Below are positions 2,904 through 36,514 of a stretch of 64,000 nucleotides of DNA, piece after piece (the stretch's first letter is position 1; each line of letters opens with the position of its first letter). This DNA is from a virus. Its lineage: Duplodnaviria > Caudoviricetes. The translations under genes and the position numbers were made by a program. The DNA lies in the IMG/VR virus record IMGVR_UViG_3300031993_000045, positions 1-64,000 of that record, one strand, 5' to 3'. The notes below the pieces were generated by a model that saw only the letters and a program-made list of their open reading frames with translations, searched no databases and had not been told where the DNA came from.

Positions 2904-3533
2904 TTAAAATGGCAACTCATCTTTAGACCCTTCGTTTGCGAATGGGTTAGATGATGTAGACTCAGAACCCTGAGTACTGTTACCAGCAAGAGGATCGGCG
3001 TTAGCCTCGTTATCAGCCTGTACAGGACGCTCAAAGAGGTCTCGTGCAAACTTCTTAATCTGAGTCTCTTCGACAGTCATTGGCTCTACAAAGATTCCGT
3101 TACGGGAGATCGTTGTGTAACCCTTCTTGTCGTATACAACCTTTAGGCGCAATGCCTTCTTTATCGCAATCATTGGGGACAGCTTAGAGCTTACCCAATT
3201 TATCATATCGGCGAATGAGTTCAGTGTTGTGTCCTCAATCGTCTCGTAGAAGCAGTTGATAATCTGCATCATGCGTCCGAACTGTGCATTGTCTGCTTTC
3301 TGCAGATCGTCATCAGTCTTCGTATATAGTCCCTTCTCGTTCTTCCATTCGGACAAGCTTGCAGTCTGTCCGTTTTCATTCTCAAAGACAATCTCAAGGA
3401 AATCCTTGCCTGTTGGAGACTTCTTTACGTTAACCTCCTTGAGGTATACATTGTCGTTGATACCTGCAGACATATAGTCTGATGTGAACTCACTAGGGTT
3501 GATAGTTGCTGTTGCTGTAGTTGTATTGAACAT
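2904..3533 (-). CDS. Single-stranded DNA-binding protein (crAss type)
   Basis: Acidic C-terminal tail ending DELPF; adjacent to a Sak4-like ATPase in the replication module. Confidence 0.75.
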   Translation of the reverse strand: MFNTTTATATINPSEFTSDYMSAGINDNVYLKEVNVKKSPTGKDFLEIVFENENGQTASLSEWKNEKGLYTKTDDDLQKADNAQFGRMMQIINCFYETIEDTTLNSFADMINWVSSKLSPMIAIKKALRLKVVYDKKGYTTISRNGIFVEPMTVEETQIKKFARDLFERPVQADNEANADPLAGNSTQGSESTSSNPFANEGSKDELPF

Positions 3534-3566
3534 ATTTTATTTAGTTACTGTGTTAAACATCTGAAC

Positions 3567-4310
3567 TTACGCGTTCTTGTATACTTTATCCCAATATGTA
3601 GTAAGAGTACCATCTTCGTTACCTGTCGCAACAACGATGTCTTGTCCTCTTAAGTGTGGAGCACGAGCTTCTTTTGGAGTACCGTCACCACCTTTGAAAC
3701 TAATGTGTGTTTCGTTGCCTTTCCTGTACAGTAAGCCAACAGCATCAGCTTCACCACATATTATAGAACTCAGTTTACCAACAAGGTCAAGTGACATTTC
3801 TGACAACTCTTCACCATTATTGTTTACCTGAGTGTCCTTGACGTGTCCGACGAGAATGAACTCATCACACAAGCCTTTGAACATATCGATAACATTTCGC
3901 ACTGCTTGACGGATATAGAAGTATCCACCTCCGTTAGGCAATGTTCTTACATCGTTACCCTTATAGCTTTTGCCCATAGGGGTAGCCTGATATAATCGAA
4001 GTGCATACGAGAGACAAATCTCTTCCAAACGCGTAGCATTGTCTATAGTTATGCGTCTATAGAATGCATGTCCTACTTCTGCATTCTTAGCTCTAATGGC
4101 TTTAGCAGCTTCTCCAAGATCCTCAACCGACCTACATTGTATAGCCATTGCGTCTATAAATGTAGAACCGCCCTCGAGGTCTATAATAAGATTGTTGTCC
4201 AACTGTGCAAGACAAGAAGTCTTACCAGCCTTAGGACGACCATATATGATTAAGAACTTTGGATTAGTCGAAGTTGCTGGAACTTTAGTTGTAGGTAATA
4301 TCAAACTCAT
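3567..4310 (-). CDS. AAA_24 / Sak4-like ATPase (single-strand annealing)
   Basis: IYGRPKAGKTS Walker A, IIDLEGG, ITIDNATRLE, ILVGH motifs. Confidence 0.8.
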   Translation of the reverse strand: MSLILPTTKVPATSTNPKFLIIYGRPKAGKTSCLAQLDNNLIIDLEGGSTFIDAMAIQCRSVEDLGEAAKAIRAKNAEVGHAFYRRITIDNATRLEEICLSYALRLYQATPMGKSYKGNDVRTLPNGGGYFYIRQAVRNVIDMFKGLCDEFILVGHVKDTQVNNNGEELSEMSLDLVGKLSSIICGEADAVGLLYRKGNETHISFKGGDGTPKEARAPHLRGQDIVVATGNEDGTLTTYWDKVYKNA

Positions 4311-16913: not shown

Positions 16914-17210
16914 TTAGAACGGAAGTGTGCTAAGCTCATAATCTATACGAGCTTGCCTGATGTTCGCAACAAAGTATGTATGAATAACAGTTTTCTGATA
17001 ATCCATTACTGACTTCATTTTAAACAACATGCCAGTTGCTATTCTGACTTTTACATCCGTTGTCGTCCAATTATCAGTAGAAATCTGCTGACAAATATTC
17101 TTATTAACCCACCTTAACCAAACTATAAGATCGTGATTTTTCATTATCTCAAGCCACGGATAAGGTTTGATTACTGTGTTAGAACACTCATAGCACTTAA
17201 GAAGATCCAT
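16914..17210 (-). CDS. Hypothetical protein
   Basis: ORF track; tightly packed. Confidence 0.65.
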   Translation of the reverse strand: MDLLKCYECSNTVIKPYPWLEIMKNHDLIVWLRWVNKNICQQISTDNWTTTDVKVRIATGMLFKMKSVMDYQKTVIHTYFVANIRQARIDYELSTLPF

Positions 17211-17212
17211 AA

Positions 17213-17659
17213 TTAAAGCTTTTCGATTAGATAATTAGCCAAAGTTTCTTTGATGCCATACTTCTCAACAAGCTTGTTTACAGTCACTTCTTCAGGTTCT
17301 CCTTTATCTCGATCTGATTTAATCAAATCTTTGATATAGGGTGTCTTCACCGCAAACCATGCAACCCAATCAGAGATTTTGTTCCAATAGTTAAACTCAT
17401 CAAGAGTTTCCTCTTTGTTGAGTCGGTGAAGTTCGAGCGTATCTTTGAACGTCCACTTCTTTAAGTTAAAAGTGTCGTTCACGTATTTCATTTTCCGATC
17501 GTTGTTTTGTTTTCGGGTGTGAGTGACATCAGTATTCAAAGGTGCGATACCAATGTTGTAAATACGCTCGACATAACGTCGGCGACATTTAAGCCAACGT
17601 AGAGCCAAATCCCATGTTGCAGGGATTCGATCAGATATTAATTTACGATATCCGCTCAT
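17213..17659 (-). CDS. Hypothetical protein
   Basis: ORF track; tightly packed. Confidence 0.65.
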   Translation of the reverse strand: MSGYRKLISDRIPATWDLALRWLKCRRRYVERIYNIGIAPLNTDVTHTRKQNNDRKMKYVNDTFNLKKWTFKDTLELHRLNKEETLDEFNYWNKISDWVAWFAVKTPYIKDLIKSDRDKGEPEEVTVNKLVEKYGIKETLANYLIEKL

Positions 17660-17705
17660 AATTTCAGTAAGTTAGTAAATATGAAGGATTCGAACCTTCT
17701 ATATC

Positions 17706-18296
17706 TTAGTTCCTTACTTTGAACACTCTCATATGCAGTGTAGGGAAGATTTCTTTTACTTTTTCTTCTGACACCGCGTTATGCAAGGTGACATAACAAA
17801 CATTCTTGTTCGTCATGACAGAATCCTTATCTACGCCTGCTTTTAGTAGCATTGCCTTAACGGCACGTTCACCATGAGCTACGATAGGTACATCGATTTC
17901 TTCTACAGAGAGTACACGACGTCTTTCATCGCGCTTGTACACGGTCTTCTTTCTCATCTTGTCAGTATGATAATAGAAGTTAGAAGGAACCAGAATCTGT
18001 AGGATTCTTTTTACTGTAACCGCAGGAGTCTCTTTTTTGGAAACAGGGACGATCCAGCTCTTTTCACCGTTTTGGTGATAGAACTTCTTACATCCGAAAT
18101 GTTCCTGATTGAATGCGACACGTTGTGCATGAATAACTTCTGGATTTACTCGTTGCACATTTTCGATTCGCCTTCCTGTCGGTTCATCTTTAGCCTTAGG
18201 CGTCATCTTAATTGTTAGCGCCTTAGACTGCTTACTCGTCGTTTTCTTCCAGACCGCTCCGGAACGATTTTTAGCATGCAAATAAACTTTCTTCAT
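17706..18296 (-). CDS. Hypothetical basic protein
   Basis: Start moved to MKKVYLH, which carries the TAAC...ATCAAGATG leader; the longer track ORF overlaps tRNA-Leu. Confidence 0.65.
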   Translation of the reverse strand: MKKVYLHAKNRSGAVWKKTTSKQSKALTIKMTPKAKDEPTGRRIENVQRVNPEVIHAQRVAFNQEHFGCKKFYHQNGEKSWIVPVSKKETPAVTVKRILQILVPSNFYYHTDKMRKKTVYKRDERRRVLSVEEIDVPIVAHGERAVKAMLLKAGVDKDSVMTNKNVCYVTLHNAVSEEKVKEIFPTLHMRVFKVRN

Positions 18297-18361
18297 CTTG
18301 ATGATTTTTGAAGTTAATAATGTGAATGTCCAGTTTTTGTAAAGAACTTGGTAAAAACTTG

Positions 18362-18447
18362 TGCTGAGAGCGGGAATCGAACCCACACGACCCTTTCGGA
18401 TCAAGGGATTTTAAGTCCCTTGCGTCTACCCATTCCGCCATCACAGC
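18362..18447 (-). tRNA. tRNA-Leu (anticodon TAA)
   Basis: GCTGTGA/TCTCAGC acceptor, AGGGA-CT TAA AA-TCCCT anticodon arm, long variable arm, GTGGG-TTCGATT-CCCGC T-arm. Confidence 0.93.
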
Positions 18448-18449
18448 AG

Positions 18450-18620
18450 CCTGGGACGCTGATTAATCAGCGCCTGTCATAAAGACCACTTTCGTAGTTT
18501 CCCACGCTGACTTTACTTACGCTACGTGAGTATAGTCAAGGATGCAATTGTTATTGCCAGTTAAATTTGGATTTATGAGTCTCGTACTTATCTCATGTGC
18601 AGTCAATGCCAGTTATCCCC
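18450..18620 (-). ncRNA. ssrA: tmRNA coding piece (5' acceptor strand plus tag ORF) of a permuted ssrA gene
   Basis: Begins GGGGATAACTGGCATTGAC; resume context TTTAACT-GGC; tag GNNNCILDYTHVA* at 18558-18517; 3' boundary approximate. Confidence 0.85.
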
Positions 18621-18761
18621 ATGTTAAAAAAGGTGGGGCGGCGGCAGAAAAAAATCCATAGAAAACTAATCGCATAATATAATCAGCAATAATATAGGAC
18701 GCCCTTTAACGCCCGAATTAAGTTAATTATTCTTGTTTACTAGAGGTTGCCGCCCCACCAT

Positions 18762-18860
18762 TGGTGGAGATAGAGGGAATCGAACCCTCGTCCTAACACA
18801 CTTGCATCGTACTAATAACGACTCAGTAGGACCTAAAGGGAGTGATCAGCTCCCTATAGG
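18762..18860 (-). ncRNA. ssrA: tmRNA acceptor piece (T-arm plus CCA end) of a permuted ssrA gene
   Basis: Ends GGAC-GAGGG-TTCGATT-CCCTC-TATCTCC-A-CCA; pairs with GGGGATA giving G3.U70 and A73; 5' boundary approximate. Confidence 0.87.
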
Positions 18861-19433
18861 TTAATTATATCTCAATACTAACTTGTGAATAACAGAAAAA
18901 CCCTTGCAAGACCAGCCTAAATGGAAGTGCAGTACTACCGGTAATAAGCTTTGGTTTATTAGACTGAAATTTTTCTATATATTCAAAAGGTCTAGTGAGG
19001 TACAATCTTATATATGTTGTGTACTTAACCGTCCTGCCTCAAGGGTCTTGTCCAGTGTACAACAGTATCACTTTGAAGTCCATATGTGTCATAAGACAGG
19101 CTCGGTGGCTCACATATTTTGCTTTTATTTTGAACAAAGTACGTATTTACTCCTACGCGGGAGGTTCCGTCCTCACGTGGCTCAAAGGCTCTTGTGTTTC
19201 TCGTTAATTCGAGACATCGTAAAGTTACTTCCATTCGGCACACGGAATTGGTTCTATCCAGGTCTGGCAGGTCGATAACATAAGATTGCACTGCTAAGGA
19301 TGATACCCTACCGCACCAAGCCACTTCTTCATTTCGCTTTACTTCGGATACATTACTGACTCGTAGGTTCTGAATGCGGGGCTTGACTATTACGTCCTTT
19401 CTGAAATCGCTCTTGATTGAGCCAACGACGTAA

Positions 19434-19925
19434 TTAGAAGCTCCAAGATGGACGACGGCAGCCTTCTGCCCAGCGCTCATACTCCCAATCGGTGCTATAG
19501 TAGCTTGGGAAGTTGTCATTGAGCTCACGAACGAGGTTTCTGTACTCATCATCGATCTTGTTGAACTCCTCACGGCGCTTCTTAGAAAGCTCATAGAGAG
19601 CCTGATCGTATGCGCGTGGAGTGATCTCGCCCTTCTTGAGCTTGTCAAGGTTCTCCTTGGTAGCTGTGAGAGCCTCCTTGGTGATCTTCTCCTCAGCACG
19701 ACGCTTACGAAGCTGCAGAAGCTCACGCTTGTTGATGTACTCAGCCATCACGAGCGCCTTCTTCATCTCGCCCTTCTTCTTGTCGTCCTTCTCCTTCTGG
19801 AGTTCCTTCTCAGCCTCAGCGACGATGGCATCTTCCATCTTGTTCTCGCCCTTGATCTGCTGCTCGATGTTCTCTACTGTTGTTTCTGTTGCAGCATTTG
19901 CTGCGTTGTTTTCTTTCTTTGCCAT
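19434..19925 (-). CDS. Coiled-coil hypothetical protein
   Basis: High-expression codon bias; E/K-rich. Confidence 0.75.
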   Translation of the reverse strand: MAKKENNAANAATETTVENIEQQIKGENKMEDAIVAEAEKELQKEKDDKKKGEMKKALVMAEYINKRELLQLRKRRAEEKITKEALTATKENLDKLKKGEITPRAYDQALYELSKKRREEFNKIDDEYRNLVRELNDNFPSYYSTDWEYERWAEGCRRPSWSF

Positions 19926-20095
19926 AACTTTGATAGTTTAAAATTGGTTATTACTATGCAGAATATCTGCGTTACTTTAAAAGTTTGTACACTCGATTAA
20001 CTAATCGATCTCAAGCATTCTCATCTTCTTCCTGTTATAAGGTTTCAGATGTGCTTTGCGAGTACTTTTGTACTGATTGGTGTAAGTGCGTGCCA

Positions 20096-20542
20096 TTACT
20101 GATTGAGATAATCTTTGTAAAAGGTTCTCACAATATCACGATGTTTCTGTGTAAACCCATACTTCTGTGTAATTGTTTTTGACACAGGGGCTTCCCTGTC
20201 AGACTTAGCGAGGATTGAGCATGCTTTGAGGAATCCTCTGGTTGCATCAGACTCTCGATCATCTTCTGCATCTATAAATCTCTTAGCAAGCTCTGTCATA
20301 AATCTTGTCAATGACCTTGTAGAACACAATGTAGCTATTACTTCTACAGAAGAATTGCCGTCTTCTACAGACATCGTAGGGATCACACATGTTTTTGCCA
20401 CGAGACCTGCGATTGAGTCTTCGTCAAAGAATTTGACGTCTACATCGCTGTGGTTCGTAATGAATGGCGCGTTTTCGATGAGCTCCTTTACAGCACCCAT
20501 GACTGGAGTTACTCCGTCATAAAGAATTACAATTGCTTTCAT
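20096..20542 (-). CDS. Hypothetical protein
   Basis: ORF track. Confidence 0.7.
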   Translation of the reverse strand: MKAIVILYDGVTPVMGAVKELIENAPFITNHSDVDVKFFDEDSIAGLVAKTCVIPTMSVEDGNSSVEVIATLCSTRSLTRFMTELAKRFIDAEDDRESDATRGFLKACSILAKSDREAPVSKTITQKYGFTQKHRDIVRTFYKDYLNQ

Positions 20543-24757: not shown

Positions 24758-24888
24758 TTTGCTTTATATTTTTAGTTAGACATGTGAGTTCATACAAAAA
24801 CCTACCGATTCTCACGAACAGGTAGGAAAATTAAACAAAAAAGTCGTTCAACAAAATAAAACCCATTGTTTGAAGTAGTCATGAATTG

Positions 24889-24959: not shown

Positions 24960-25110
24960 AGACCCCAACTTTAAAAGTTGGCTGTTATTTTGCAGAAAAC
25001 AGATGTGTCTGATGTAAAAAGTATCACCCACTCTCACGAGCAAGTGATACAACTCCTTTTATTTTTGAGTCTTAAACCTTGTTAAAGGCGTATACCGCTG
25101 TATACATTTG

Positions 25111-25165
25111 TGGAGAATGTGGGACTCGAACCCACTGAGACCACCTAGCCTGGGTCGTATTCTCC
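25111..25165 (-). ncRNA. 55-nt mini tRNA-like element (acceptor stem plus T-arm)
   Basis: GGAGAAT/ATTCTCC perfect 7 bp plus A; GTGGG-TTCGAGT-CCCAC; only 23 nt between them. Confidence 0.6.
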
Positions 25166-25655
25166 GAAACGCAGGTTCTCGAATTTCTTACACGCTCTGA
25201 GCTACCTGCAAACCGTTAAGCGTGATATTTTTTAGTTTTAGAATAAACTACACCTATTCTCACGAACAAGTGTAGTAGAACTATTCATTAAATCATTAAA
25301 GAAGAAATGGTATTGTTCTCACGAATTATACCATCTAACGCTTGAATATTGCTTGCTACTAAACAAAAACCTATAATAACATGCATTCTAAAACCCAAGT
25401 GGACTACTATGGACCCGACCCATAGAAATGTGCGAGTATAATTGAATAGTTAGTTCAATACACATCCGCTGCCAATCATCATACTGTAATTGTATGACAA
25501 TTCCAACTAGCCCAAGTTAAAAACACACCGATCTTCACAGACAGGTGTGAAAGATTATTACGAAAAACACTTTTTCCTATAGAAACTGAAACTACTTTCA
25601 CAAGCAGTTTGAGCTAAGACGAAAATCTGTAAGAAAATCTTTCCAATAGTAGTTG

Positions 25656-25748
25656 AAGGAGTAGACGGGTTTGAACCGTCGACCTCTGGATTATGGTGCA
25701 TCTTTGTCATCCATATGATCCAGCACTCTACCGCTGAGCTATACTCCT
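25656..25748 (-). tRNA. tRNA-like gene with a 28-nt anticodon loop (21-nt insertion)
   Basis: AGGAGTA/TACTCCT, GCTC-AGCGGTA-GAGT, CTGGA/TCCAG, AGGTC, GACGG-TTCAAAC-CCGTC; loop TCATATGGATGACAAAGATGCACCATAA. Confidence 0.75.
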
Positions 25749-36377: not shown

Positions 36378-36449
36378 CGCCCACTGGTGTAATGGCTAGC
36401 ACAGAAGGCTCTAACCCTTTTAGTCTGGGTTCGAATCCTAGGTGGGAGA
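36378..36449 (+). tRNA. Amber suppressor tRNA (anticodon CTA), probably Gln
   Basis: CGCCCAC/GTGGGAG, GTGT-AATGGCTA-GCAC, GAAGG-CT CTA AC-CCTTT, CTGGG-TTCGAAT-CCTAG; D-arm nearly identical to the phage tRNA-Gln. Confidence 0.92.
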
Positions 36450-36514
36450 CAAACAAAACTAACAGCATCCCGTAAGATCTGCTTTAGTTCATAATTTTTG
36501 AAATTAAAAGTAAT

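Follow-up and report, generated by a model that had tools for sequence, protein, structure and literature searches.

A circularly permuted ssrA gene, predicted to give rise to a two-piece transfer-messenger RNA (tmRNA), is located on the minus strand of a 64,000-nucleotide stretch of tailed-virus DNA (positions 1 to 64,000 of IMG/VR record IMGVR_UViG_3300031993_000045), hereafter called the window. The program ARAGORN identified a permuted tmRNA at 18426–18858 with the tag GNNNCILDYTHVA followed by a stop codon, and the Rfam model tmRNA_permuted (RF04321) matched the window with 58 bits (E = 1e-8; gathering score 47 bits). The original prediction, made from the letters of the window, had proposed such a gene, with the identity elements of alanyl-tRNA synthetase (AlaRS) and a tag open reading frame (ORF), in a crAss-like phage. 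The calls on the native sequence by both ARAGORN and the Rfam model support this proposal, and direct reading of the minus strand of 18300–19000 bore out all of its coordinates. After the two pieces had been re-joined in the standard order, ARAGORN called an ordinary tmRNA, a match that had been chosen beforehand as the critical test of the prediction; the same was true of five of the six relatives tested (six of seven members overall). The joint presence of the tmRNA elements at their respective places is far beyond chance. Taking the analysis as a whole, we estimate a probability of about 85% that the window contains a working phage-encoded permuted ssrA gene, the RNA of which is matured and used as proposed below.

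Architecture of the two pieces

In minus-strand order, as read directly, the gene consists of an acceptor piece (18860–18762), a spacer (18761–18621), and a coding piece (18620–18448). The acceptor piece contains a hairpin, a P2 strand, the T arm, the 3' strand of the acceptor stem, the discriminator A73, and CCA. The coding piece contains the 5' strand of the acceptor stem, a D-loop analogue, a P2 strand, the tag ORF, a stop-codon hairpin, and a 3' tail, and is followed by a tRNA-Leu gene. The same permuted order is present in more than 55 related viral contigs.

The putative 5' end of the acceptor piece is a hairpin at 18832–18860, in which CCUAUAGGGAG and CUCCCUUUAGG enclose the loop CUGAUCA. 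The hairpin recurs in Dulem virus 42, in contigs L005, L007, and L008, and in others, with the loop yUGAUCa or UUGGCCA and with stem letters that differ but compensate each other. The P2 strand of the acceptor piece (18790–18825) includes UGAGUC (18825–18820), GUAC (18812–18809), UGU-g-U-UAG (18800–18793), and a GAC linker. The T arm (18773–18789), composed of GAGGG, the loop UUCGAUU, and CCCUC, was aligned by both ARAGORN and RF04321. The piece ends (18762–18772) with the acceptor strand UAUCUCC (18772–18766), A73 (18765), and an encoded CCA (18764–18762).

The coding piece starts with G1 at 18620, which opens GGGGATAACTGGCATTGAC (also read as GGGGAUAACUGGCAUUGAC). Its 5' part (18576–18620) comprises GGGGAUA (18620–18614), the D-loop analogue ACUGGCAUUGA, and the P2 segments CUG-C-ACA (18602–18596), GUAC (18587–18584), and GACUCA (18581–18576). 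The ends of the two pieces form a 7-bp acceptor stem, GGGGAUA/UAUCUCC, in which G3 (18618) pairs with U70 (18768). The AlaRS identity elements G3.U70 and A73 are thus present, and charging with alanine is predicted. The long P2 helix, which joins the tRNA-like domain to the rest of the molecule, is formed by 18790–18825 with 18576–18602 in three segments: UGAGUC with GACUCA, GUAC with GUAC, and UGU..UAG with CUG.ACA. Helices between the pieces had been part of the original prediction; the helices are present on reading and covary across 46 distinct relatives.

The tag frame (18517–18558), identified by ARAGORN, reads GGC AAU AAC AAU UGC AUC CUU GAC UAU ACU CAC GUA GCG UAA. It is an internal frame without a start codon, the resume codon GGC is preceded by UUUAACU, and the last sense codon specifies alanine (GCG UAA). 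The gap between P2 and the resume codon is only 17 nt long (18575–18559) and therefore leaves no room for pseudoknot 1. The codons for Thr-His-Val-Ala and the stop codon are held in a hairpin, ACUCACG-UAG-CGUAAGU (18515–18531), an analogue of helix 5 that was recovered by RNAalifold from the family alignment. Its one C.A mismatch is repaired in relatives by a UGA stop codon, which gives a C-G pair (cr130_1, cr131_1), or by Cys or Tyr at the position of His, and compensating CAUG/CAUG variants occur in cr131_1 and L006.

The 3' tail of the coding piece (18448–18514; fold z = -3.37) contains the hairpin CGUGG-GAAA-CUACG (18506–18493), the motif CUAC(C/G)AAAGUG, and a second hairpin at 18474–18454. 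Across the family, the motif recurs, enclosed by a small covarying stem. A tRNA-Leu(UAA) gene, called by ARAGORN and Rfam, occupies 18361–18447. Since the 3' limit given by ARAGORN for the tmRNA (18426) overlaps this tRNA, the coding piece must end by 18448, its putative 3' end. The two pieces together are approximately 270 nt long. A tRNA or a tRNA-like minihelix of acceptor stem and T arm lies directly 3' of the coding piece in every relative examined: it is tRNA-Leu in the window, L014, and cr273_1, and a minihelix labelled tRNA-Cys by RefSeq in cr7_1. Because of this constancy, the 3' end of the coding piece is probably generated by RNase P cleavage in front of the element.

The minihelix, a 5–7-bp acceptor-like stem with the T arm GGTTCGAnTCC, was observed 60–130 nt past the tag stop codon in L007, L008, L016, L020, L024, and L026–L028. 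It occurs wherever a full tRNA is absent from this place. It could mark the end for RNase P, or it could be what remains of the second gene copy after a duplication that made the permutation.

Orthologs in crAss-like phages

A back-translated DYTHVA-stop pattern identified 19 viral contigs, mostly 90–100 kb long, and ARAGORN called a permuted tmRNA in 12 of them; a pattern of the P2 strand and T arm of the acceptor piece identified 55 stretches. Over 70 loci, ARAGORN called 55 permuted tmRNAs with 18 tag variants (17 besides that of the window). The tags have the form x-N-x-N-(N)-I/V-V-D-Y-T-(H/N/C/Y)-V/I-A, with the outliers GNINVVDYTGLQEAA (cr273_1) and GNTSYIMNYSRIAA (cr115_1, Uncouvirinae), and all of them end in alanine. 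The frame is open in every member examined, and tag lengths differ by whole codons (12, 13, 14, or 15 residues). A blastn search of the phage collection with the gene matched only its tRNA-Leu part, because the orthologs are too diverged for blastn. The exact pattern of the 5' piece gave no matches, and a search for related loci with the sigma factor as the query found nothing. The exact pattern of the T arm and acceptor matched only unrelated phage tRNA-Ala genes, and the matches of the loose pattern TTTGAN{5,9}GGARNTAAATMC were mostly due to chance; both sets were discarded.

For structure analysis, the acceptor and coding pieces were cut out, joined by a short loop, aligned, and folded with RNAalifold, which recovered the T arm, the acceptor stem, the three segments of P2, a hairpin within the tag frame, and the hairpin over the stop codon. 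Among the 46 distinct sequences, the proximal 8-bp helix of P2, which had played no part in choosing them, is 98% canonical, with double-sided changes at all eight pairs. The T stem covaries at four of five pairs and the acceptor stem at four of seven, with G1-C72, G2-C71, and G3.U70 fixed. The 46 sequences had been extracted under the requirement of a paired acceptor stem with G3.U70, and the check was therefore repeated without this requirement on 59 loci selected by the 5' pattern of P2 and T arm alone. All 59 have U70 and A73, with at least nine different acceptor strands, and in 54 of them an unbiased search of the downstream sequence returned a single perfect 7-bp partner, in each case a GGGnnnn where the coding piece begins. 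The compensatory nature of the covariation, the recurrence of the arrangement across many samples (more than 55 independent contigs), and the presence of the window stretch in sequencing runs from 18 ruminant-gut studies make it very improbable that the gene is an artefact of assembly or a host gene that was captured and is now decaying and without function. Nothing specific speaks for such an origin, apart from the phage being uncultured and known from assemblies alone.

RefSeq labels orthologs as "transfer-messenger RNA, SsrA" at the corresponding place in cr273_1 and cr272_1 (Buhlduvirus), cr130_1 (Chuhaivirus), cr131_1 (Cacepaovirus), and cr124_1 and cr7_1 (Burzaovirus), all of them Oafivirinae, and also in cr115_1. 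The Oafivirinae genes and that of Dulem virus 42 share with the window gene the permuted order, the place 5' of two small genes and an extracytoplasmic function (ECF)-like sigma factor, the homologous architecture of hairpin, P2, T arm, and acceptor, the tRNA or tRNA-like element after the coding piece, and tags of one family (...VDYTHVA, ...VDYTNVA). The window gene belongs to the tmRNA family of Oafivirinae and Uncouvirinae on account of its ...DYTxVA tag, its hairpin with the CUGAUCA loop, its P2 architecture, and its synteny with the sigma factor. Its own traits, compared to the Oafivirinae genes, are the encoded CCA, a 141-nt spacer with an 11-bp clamp, a full tRNA-Leu as the end marker, and the ruminant-gut source. 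Furthermore, its tag has Cys-Ile-Leu where the relatives have Asn-Ile-Val, and it seems to lack the extra 5' stems of Burzaovirus-type genes. In Dulem virus 42 (PP511876.1), ARAGORN called a permuted tmRNA with the tag GNDNNIVDYTHVA at the syntenic place, where GenBank shows small hypothetical coding sequences over the gene and no tmRNA label. The original prediction had warned that standard finders can miss such genes. The warning does not apply to the window copy, which both ARAGORN and RF04321 detect, but it holds for RF04321 in Dulem virus 42, cr115_1, and the L008 group, which score below the cut-off. The permuted tmRNA annotated in cr115_1 (NC_055898.1, 42525–42886; Suoliviridae, Uncouvirinae), whose tag is the second outlier given above, is also located upstream of a sigma-factor gene. 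The presence of the gene in this second subfamily extends the trait to two present-day families of Crassvirales.

The window gene is thus a new ortholog in a family that has already been catalogued, in RefSeq and in Table S1 of Buchholz et al. 2022, which lists 13 crAssphage genomes with a "Permuted" tmRNA and one with a "linear" tmRNA (PMC9004378). The statement that the layout is not a recognised feature of Crassvirales is not supported, and a claim of first recognition fails. The main text of Buchholz et al. discusses marine phages only (PMC9004378). The 2025 tmRNA catalogue, in its accessible text, divides the permuted forms into three main clades and includes 79 sequences from phages, which it does not name there. 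No paper describing these genes was found in the searchable literature on tmRNA in crAss-like and gut phages. The one-piece tmRNA reported for cr106_1 was not found with a Segatella tmRNA query at E <= 1e-3. The lack of room for pseudoknot 1, the stop codon within a conserved hairpin, the tRNA or tRNA-like element 3' of the coding piece, the spacer of 14–231 nt, and a group I intron in the T loop of the closest relative are without description in the searchable literature.

This closest relative of the gene, L014 (IMGVR_UViG_3300032038_000989), is 84% identical and carries an 806-nt insertion at 2934–3739, after U54 of the T loop, between the bases that match 18784 and 18783 of the window. The insertion is a group I intron (RF00028, 80 bits) with P1 AGGGU/GCCCU. 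It contains, on the opposite strand, an ORF of 203 amino acids that has the look of an HNH-type endonuclease by eye and no Pfam match. An insertion of the same kind is present in L023. Group I introns in the T-psi-C loop are known from intron-form tmRNA genes (PMC11915505), to which L014 corresponds in this respect, with the window copy as the uninterrupted allele. The accessible text of the 2025 catalogue has no category for a form that is both permuted and intron-containing. In Dulem virus 42, 39040–39108 matches the RAGATH-1 hammerhead ribozyme (RF03152; 69.8 bits, cut-off 56.3).

Proposed maturation and function

The precursors of permuted tmRNA genes are cut by tRNA-processing enzymes into two base-paired RNAs (PMC11915505). 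In the window gene, the predicted cleavage sites of host RNase P lie just 5' of G1 (18620) and of tRNA-Leu (18447), and 3' trimming would leave the acceptor piece with CCA (18762) as its end. The 7-bp acceptor stem and, with it, the long P2 helix would keep the two RNAs joined. Host AlaRS would charge the molecule by virtue of G3.U70 and A73, and host SmpB and EF-Tu would bring it to ribosomes stalled on broken messages. With GGC as the resume codon, the ribosomes would then append (A)GNNNCILDYTHVA. The phage would probably benefit from the freeing of ribosomes during infection, while host mRNA is being destroyed. That the product is a phage-specific ribosome-rescue RNA, as originally proposed, we infer from the sequence. 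The phage record (85 kb, 84% complete) yielded no SmpB gene; the RNA would therefore use the SmpB of the host, together with host AlaRS, EF-Tu, RNase P, and CCA-adding enzyme.

A further source of stalling may be a TAG-suppressor tRNA of the phage, which would cause ribosomes to run through TAG stop codons. A tRNA with the anticodon CUA is encoded at 36378–36450 (plus strand) at the head of the late gene block, and the plus-strand late ORFs (38149–63138), which are 705–1173 amino acids long, contain one to six in-frame TAG codons each. The combination indicates the reassignment of TAG in the late genes.

The CCA end is encoded only in the window gene and in L014, and in none of the 59 loci of the P2/T-arm pattern set, in which a free A73 end must therefore be made and extended. 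The spacer is shortest in four contigs of the family (14 nt) and longest in Dulem virus 42 (231 nt), and its sequence is not homologous across genera. The 14-nt spacers imply that both halves are co-transcribed in those four contigs. From the non-encoded CCA and the 14-nt spacers, we infer that the two-piece state is obligatory.

In the window, the 141-nt spacer (18621–18761, between CCA and G1) is clamped by the perfect 11-bp inverted repeat noted in the original prediction, GGTGGGGCGGC (18759–18749) with GCCGCCCCACC (18642–18632), which forms in the minimum-free-energy fold of the spacer (z = -3.07) and is kept, with changes, only in L014. The GC-rich stem is followed by a run of six U (18631–18626), which ends 5 nt before G1, and the spacer contains an inner terminator-like hairpin at 18714–18697. 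Relatives also have a stable hairpin with the apex UUC-GUGA-GAA and a U run just before G1, and similar hairpins follow tRNA genes in the window. These features would fit the two halves being separate transcripts, with the acceptor piece ending at the clamp hairpin and its U run (18642–18626) and the coding piece expressed from its own promoter in the AT-rich spacer. Nevertheless, the clamp has a loop of 106 nt, unlike an intrinsic terminator, and a scan limited to promoters of the sigma-70 type found no promoter-like site on the minus strand of the spacer. The 14-nt spacers of four relatives have no room for a terminator or a promoter. Even separate transcripts would need RNase P at G1, since the stem ends 11 nt upstream. 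We therefore consider separate transcription unlikely.

Hairpins that have the apex UUC-GUGA-GAA, in which 3 bp close a GNRA loop, and a following U run recur on the minus strand of the window at 24808–24818, 25256–25266, 25315–25325, and approximately 25035–25050. They are also present in the spacers of L008, L016, and L028 and 3' of the gene in L024, always on the same strand as nearby tRNA or tmRNA genes; in relatives, one is located in the tmRNA spacer just before G1. They may be terminators or processing signals of small-RNA genes. The spacer of L024 (cr130_1, NC_055901.1) contains a cloverleaf-like element not called by ARAGORN; GCCA follows its acceptor, GACUAU/AUAGUC, and it has a T-arm-like hairpin and the anticodon-like loop UGUUAUA.

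Several observations weigh against a working permuted ssrA gene. Pseudoknots, one before the tag and three (PK2–PK4) after it, are typical of tmRNA but not universal, and pseudoknot 1 is important in the tmRNA of Escherichia coli; it has no room here. RNAalifold found only hairpins in the family alignment and no pseudoknot, although a small one is possible around CUACGAAAGUG, 3' of the tag. Because the Thr-His-Val-Ala-stop codons form a conserved hairpin, part of the conservation of the peptide (His-Val-Ala-stop) is conservation of the RNA. The tag ends in HVA rather than LAA, which makes the proteolysis of tagged proteins uncertain. In E. coli, degradation still occurs with engineered ssrA tags that have LVA at their end, and in Bacteroidota HVA could either be a degron or not. 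The stable hairpin and U run just before G1 may cause some transcripts to end before the coding piece. The connection to TAG recoding is guesswork, based on a single genome in which the two occur together. Finally, none of the exact-match contigs from four metatranscriptome runs over 17000–20500 covers 18521–18754, and contigs cannot show the ends of RNAs.

Exact-match RNA contigs cover the genes neighbouring the tmRNA at a depth of 2–6. Peaks of RNA depth at 18764–18798 and over tRNA-Leu were rejected as a tmRNA signal: they have loose ends on both sides and come from tRNAs of other organisms.

The absence of pseudoknot 1, a tag that is unlike the host tag GENNYALAA, and the overlap of the most conserved part of the frame with a hairpin would also be compatible with a decoy, that is, an RNA that inhibits host trans-translation through its tRNA-like domain and carries the tag frame as a relic. 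Such a decoy or inhibitor role is reported for a tmRNA-like RNA of mycobacteriophage DS6A that has no coding sequence (PMC11915505). However, the frame of the phage family is open throughout and varies in length by whole codons (12–15 residues), the host-like context UUUAACU before GGC is conserved, and every tag ends in alanine. We regard a decoy as highly unlikely compared to an RNA that encodes a functional tag.

Origin of the permuted form and phage context

The tag pattern GENNYALAA was found in 120 genome contigs, nearly all of Bacteroidota, and ARAGORN called a one-piece tmRNA in 102 of them. The one-piece tmRNAs of Bacteroidota and those of the phages have in common the 5' part of the tRNA-like domain (GGGG..GACUGG.UUUGAC.GC), the glycine resume codon GGC in a UUAAnU context, GUUUGGAC before the T arm, and a CCA end that is mostly not encoded. 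The first 24 nt are GGGG.cGACtGGttTTGACAGcga in the Bacteroidota consensus, GGGGAUAACUGGCAUUGACUGC in the window, and GGGGGUGACUGGAUUUGACGGC in L016. The resume context is tttTAAat followed by GGC GAa AAt AAc in Bacteroidota and AAAUUUAACU followed by GGC AAU AAC in the phage. Ahead of the T arm, the Bacteroidota consensus GTTTGGACgaGgGTTCgA compares with AUUUGGACGAGGGUUCGA in L020 and GUGUUAGGACGAGGGUUCGA in the window, and the P2 motif pairs GUAAGCAUG/UGUAGAAA of the one-piece genes correspond to GUAAAUACAU/GUAUGAAA of the phage family. The Bacteroidota tmRNAs are approximately 395 nt long with the tag GENNYALAA, whereas those of the phages are permuted, approximately 270 nt in two pieces, with a longer tag ending in HVA. 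In the Bacteroidota genes read, the tag begins 94–98 nt into the gene, in contrast to the phage genes with their lack of space for pseudoknot 1, and the region of PK2–PK4 is replaced in the phages by one or a few hairpins. When the pieces were compared by blastn to the 120 Bacteroidota loci, only the T arm and acceptor gave significant similarity.

Two-piece tmRNAs of alphaproteobacteria, a betaproteobacterial lineage, and cyanobacteria (Rfam RF01849–RF01851) were reportedly described by Keiler and colleagues in 2000 and by Sharkady and Williams in 2004. These tmRNAs, and the copies in marine phages such as Melnitz (PMC9004378), share with the window gene the permuted order, the holding of the pieces by the acceptor stem and P2, and the expected maturation by tRNA-processing enzymes. 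Permuted tmRNA genes of the alphaproteobacterial type do occur in phages (PMC9004378; L003), and RF04321, a merged model built from the three bacterial lineages, matches the window. The gene could accordingly have been acquired ready-made from one of them. However, RF04321 covers the tRNA domain only, and none of RF01849, RF01850, and RF01851 reached its gathering score on the window; at E <= 10 all of them scored below the 32.9 bits of RF00023, whereas the true alpha-type phage gene in L003 scores 61.9 bits with RF01849. The phage genes also differ from the three lineages in a resume codon for glycine instead of alanine, the absence of pseudoknot 1, the tRNA or tRNA-like element 3' of the coding piece, and a host phylum with one-piece tmRNA. 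The glycine codon and its context, the D-loop analogue, and GUUUGGAC with the T-arm motif are of the Bacteroidota one-piece type by motif comparison. We consider a ready-made acquisition highly improbable.

The comparison, which is one of consensus motifs rather than a tree or a statistical test, supports descent from Bacteroidota ssrA with a separate permutation, as the original prediction had suggested: the tRNA-like domain, P2, the resume context, and the motif before the T arm all match the one-piece form. A one-piece Bacteroidota ssrA was probably captured by an ancestor of the crAss-like phages of Oafivirinae and Uncouvirinae and then permuted and stripped of its pseudoknots. The broader proposition has, in our opinion, even chances of being correct: that the tmRNAs of crAss-like phages represent a fourth independent origin of the two-piece form, from Bacteroidota one-piece ssrA; that they are pseudoknot-free molecules of approximately 270 nt with ends set by flanking tRNA or tRNA-like elements; and that they cope with stalling caused by host mRNA decay and by the phage's own TAG read-through.

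The window is part of an 85,236-base IMG/VR record, which is estimated to be 84% complete. Its replication genes are 72–78% identical to those of Dulem virus 42, cr130_1, cr272_1, cr273_1, and a Bohxovirus (crAss-like, Oafivirinae). The Oafivirinae are placed in Suoliviridae in RefSeq lineages and in Darmviridae in the 2026 NCBI taxonomy. The ruminant-gut runs that contain the window stretch are from cattle and sheep. The tmRNA gene lies in a minus-strand block of early or middle genes, upstream of the ECF-like sigma factor, and this place upstream of a sigma-factor gene is kept in six genera. No convincing promoter of the sigma-70 type was found upstream of 18860 in a scan that did not include the promoter types of Bacteroidota and phages. 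The approximately 570 nt 5' of the tmRNA gene (18861–19433) contain no convincing minus-strand ORF, yet they are about 75% identical to L014; a long leader, a promoter region, or a further RNA may be located here. Also on the minus strand, a short tRNA-like element (GGAGAAU...GUGGG-UUCGAGU-CCCAC-AUUCUCC-A) at 25111–25165 was not called by any finder, and a 93-nt Rfam tRNA match at 25656–25748 (55.5 bits), not called by ARAGORN, probably has an insert in the anticodon region.

The window gene adds a ruminant-gut ortholog to a phage tmRNA family that is labelled in databases, without analysis in searchable papers. For annotation, Dulem virus 42 illustrates that the gene is sometimes missed and its place given to spurious small ORFs. 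The family suggests that a tag-encoding tmRNA can dispense with pseudoknot 1, and the two-piece form probably arose anew outside the three classic bacterial lineages. Abundant gut phages are predicted to bring their own ribosome-rescue RNA into the cell while relying on the SmpB and AlaRS of the host. The HVA end of the tag raises the question of whether the tagged proteins would be degraded or spared during infection.

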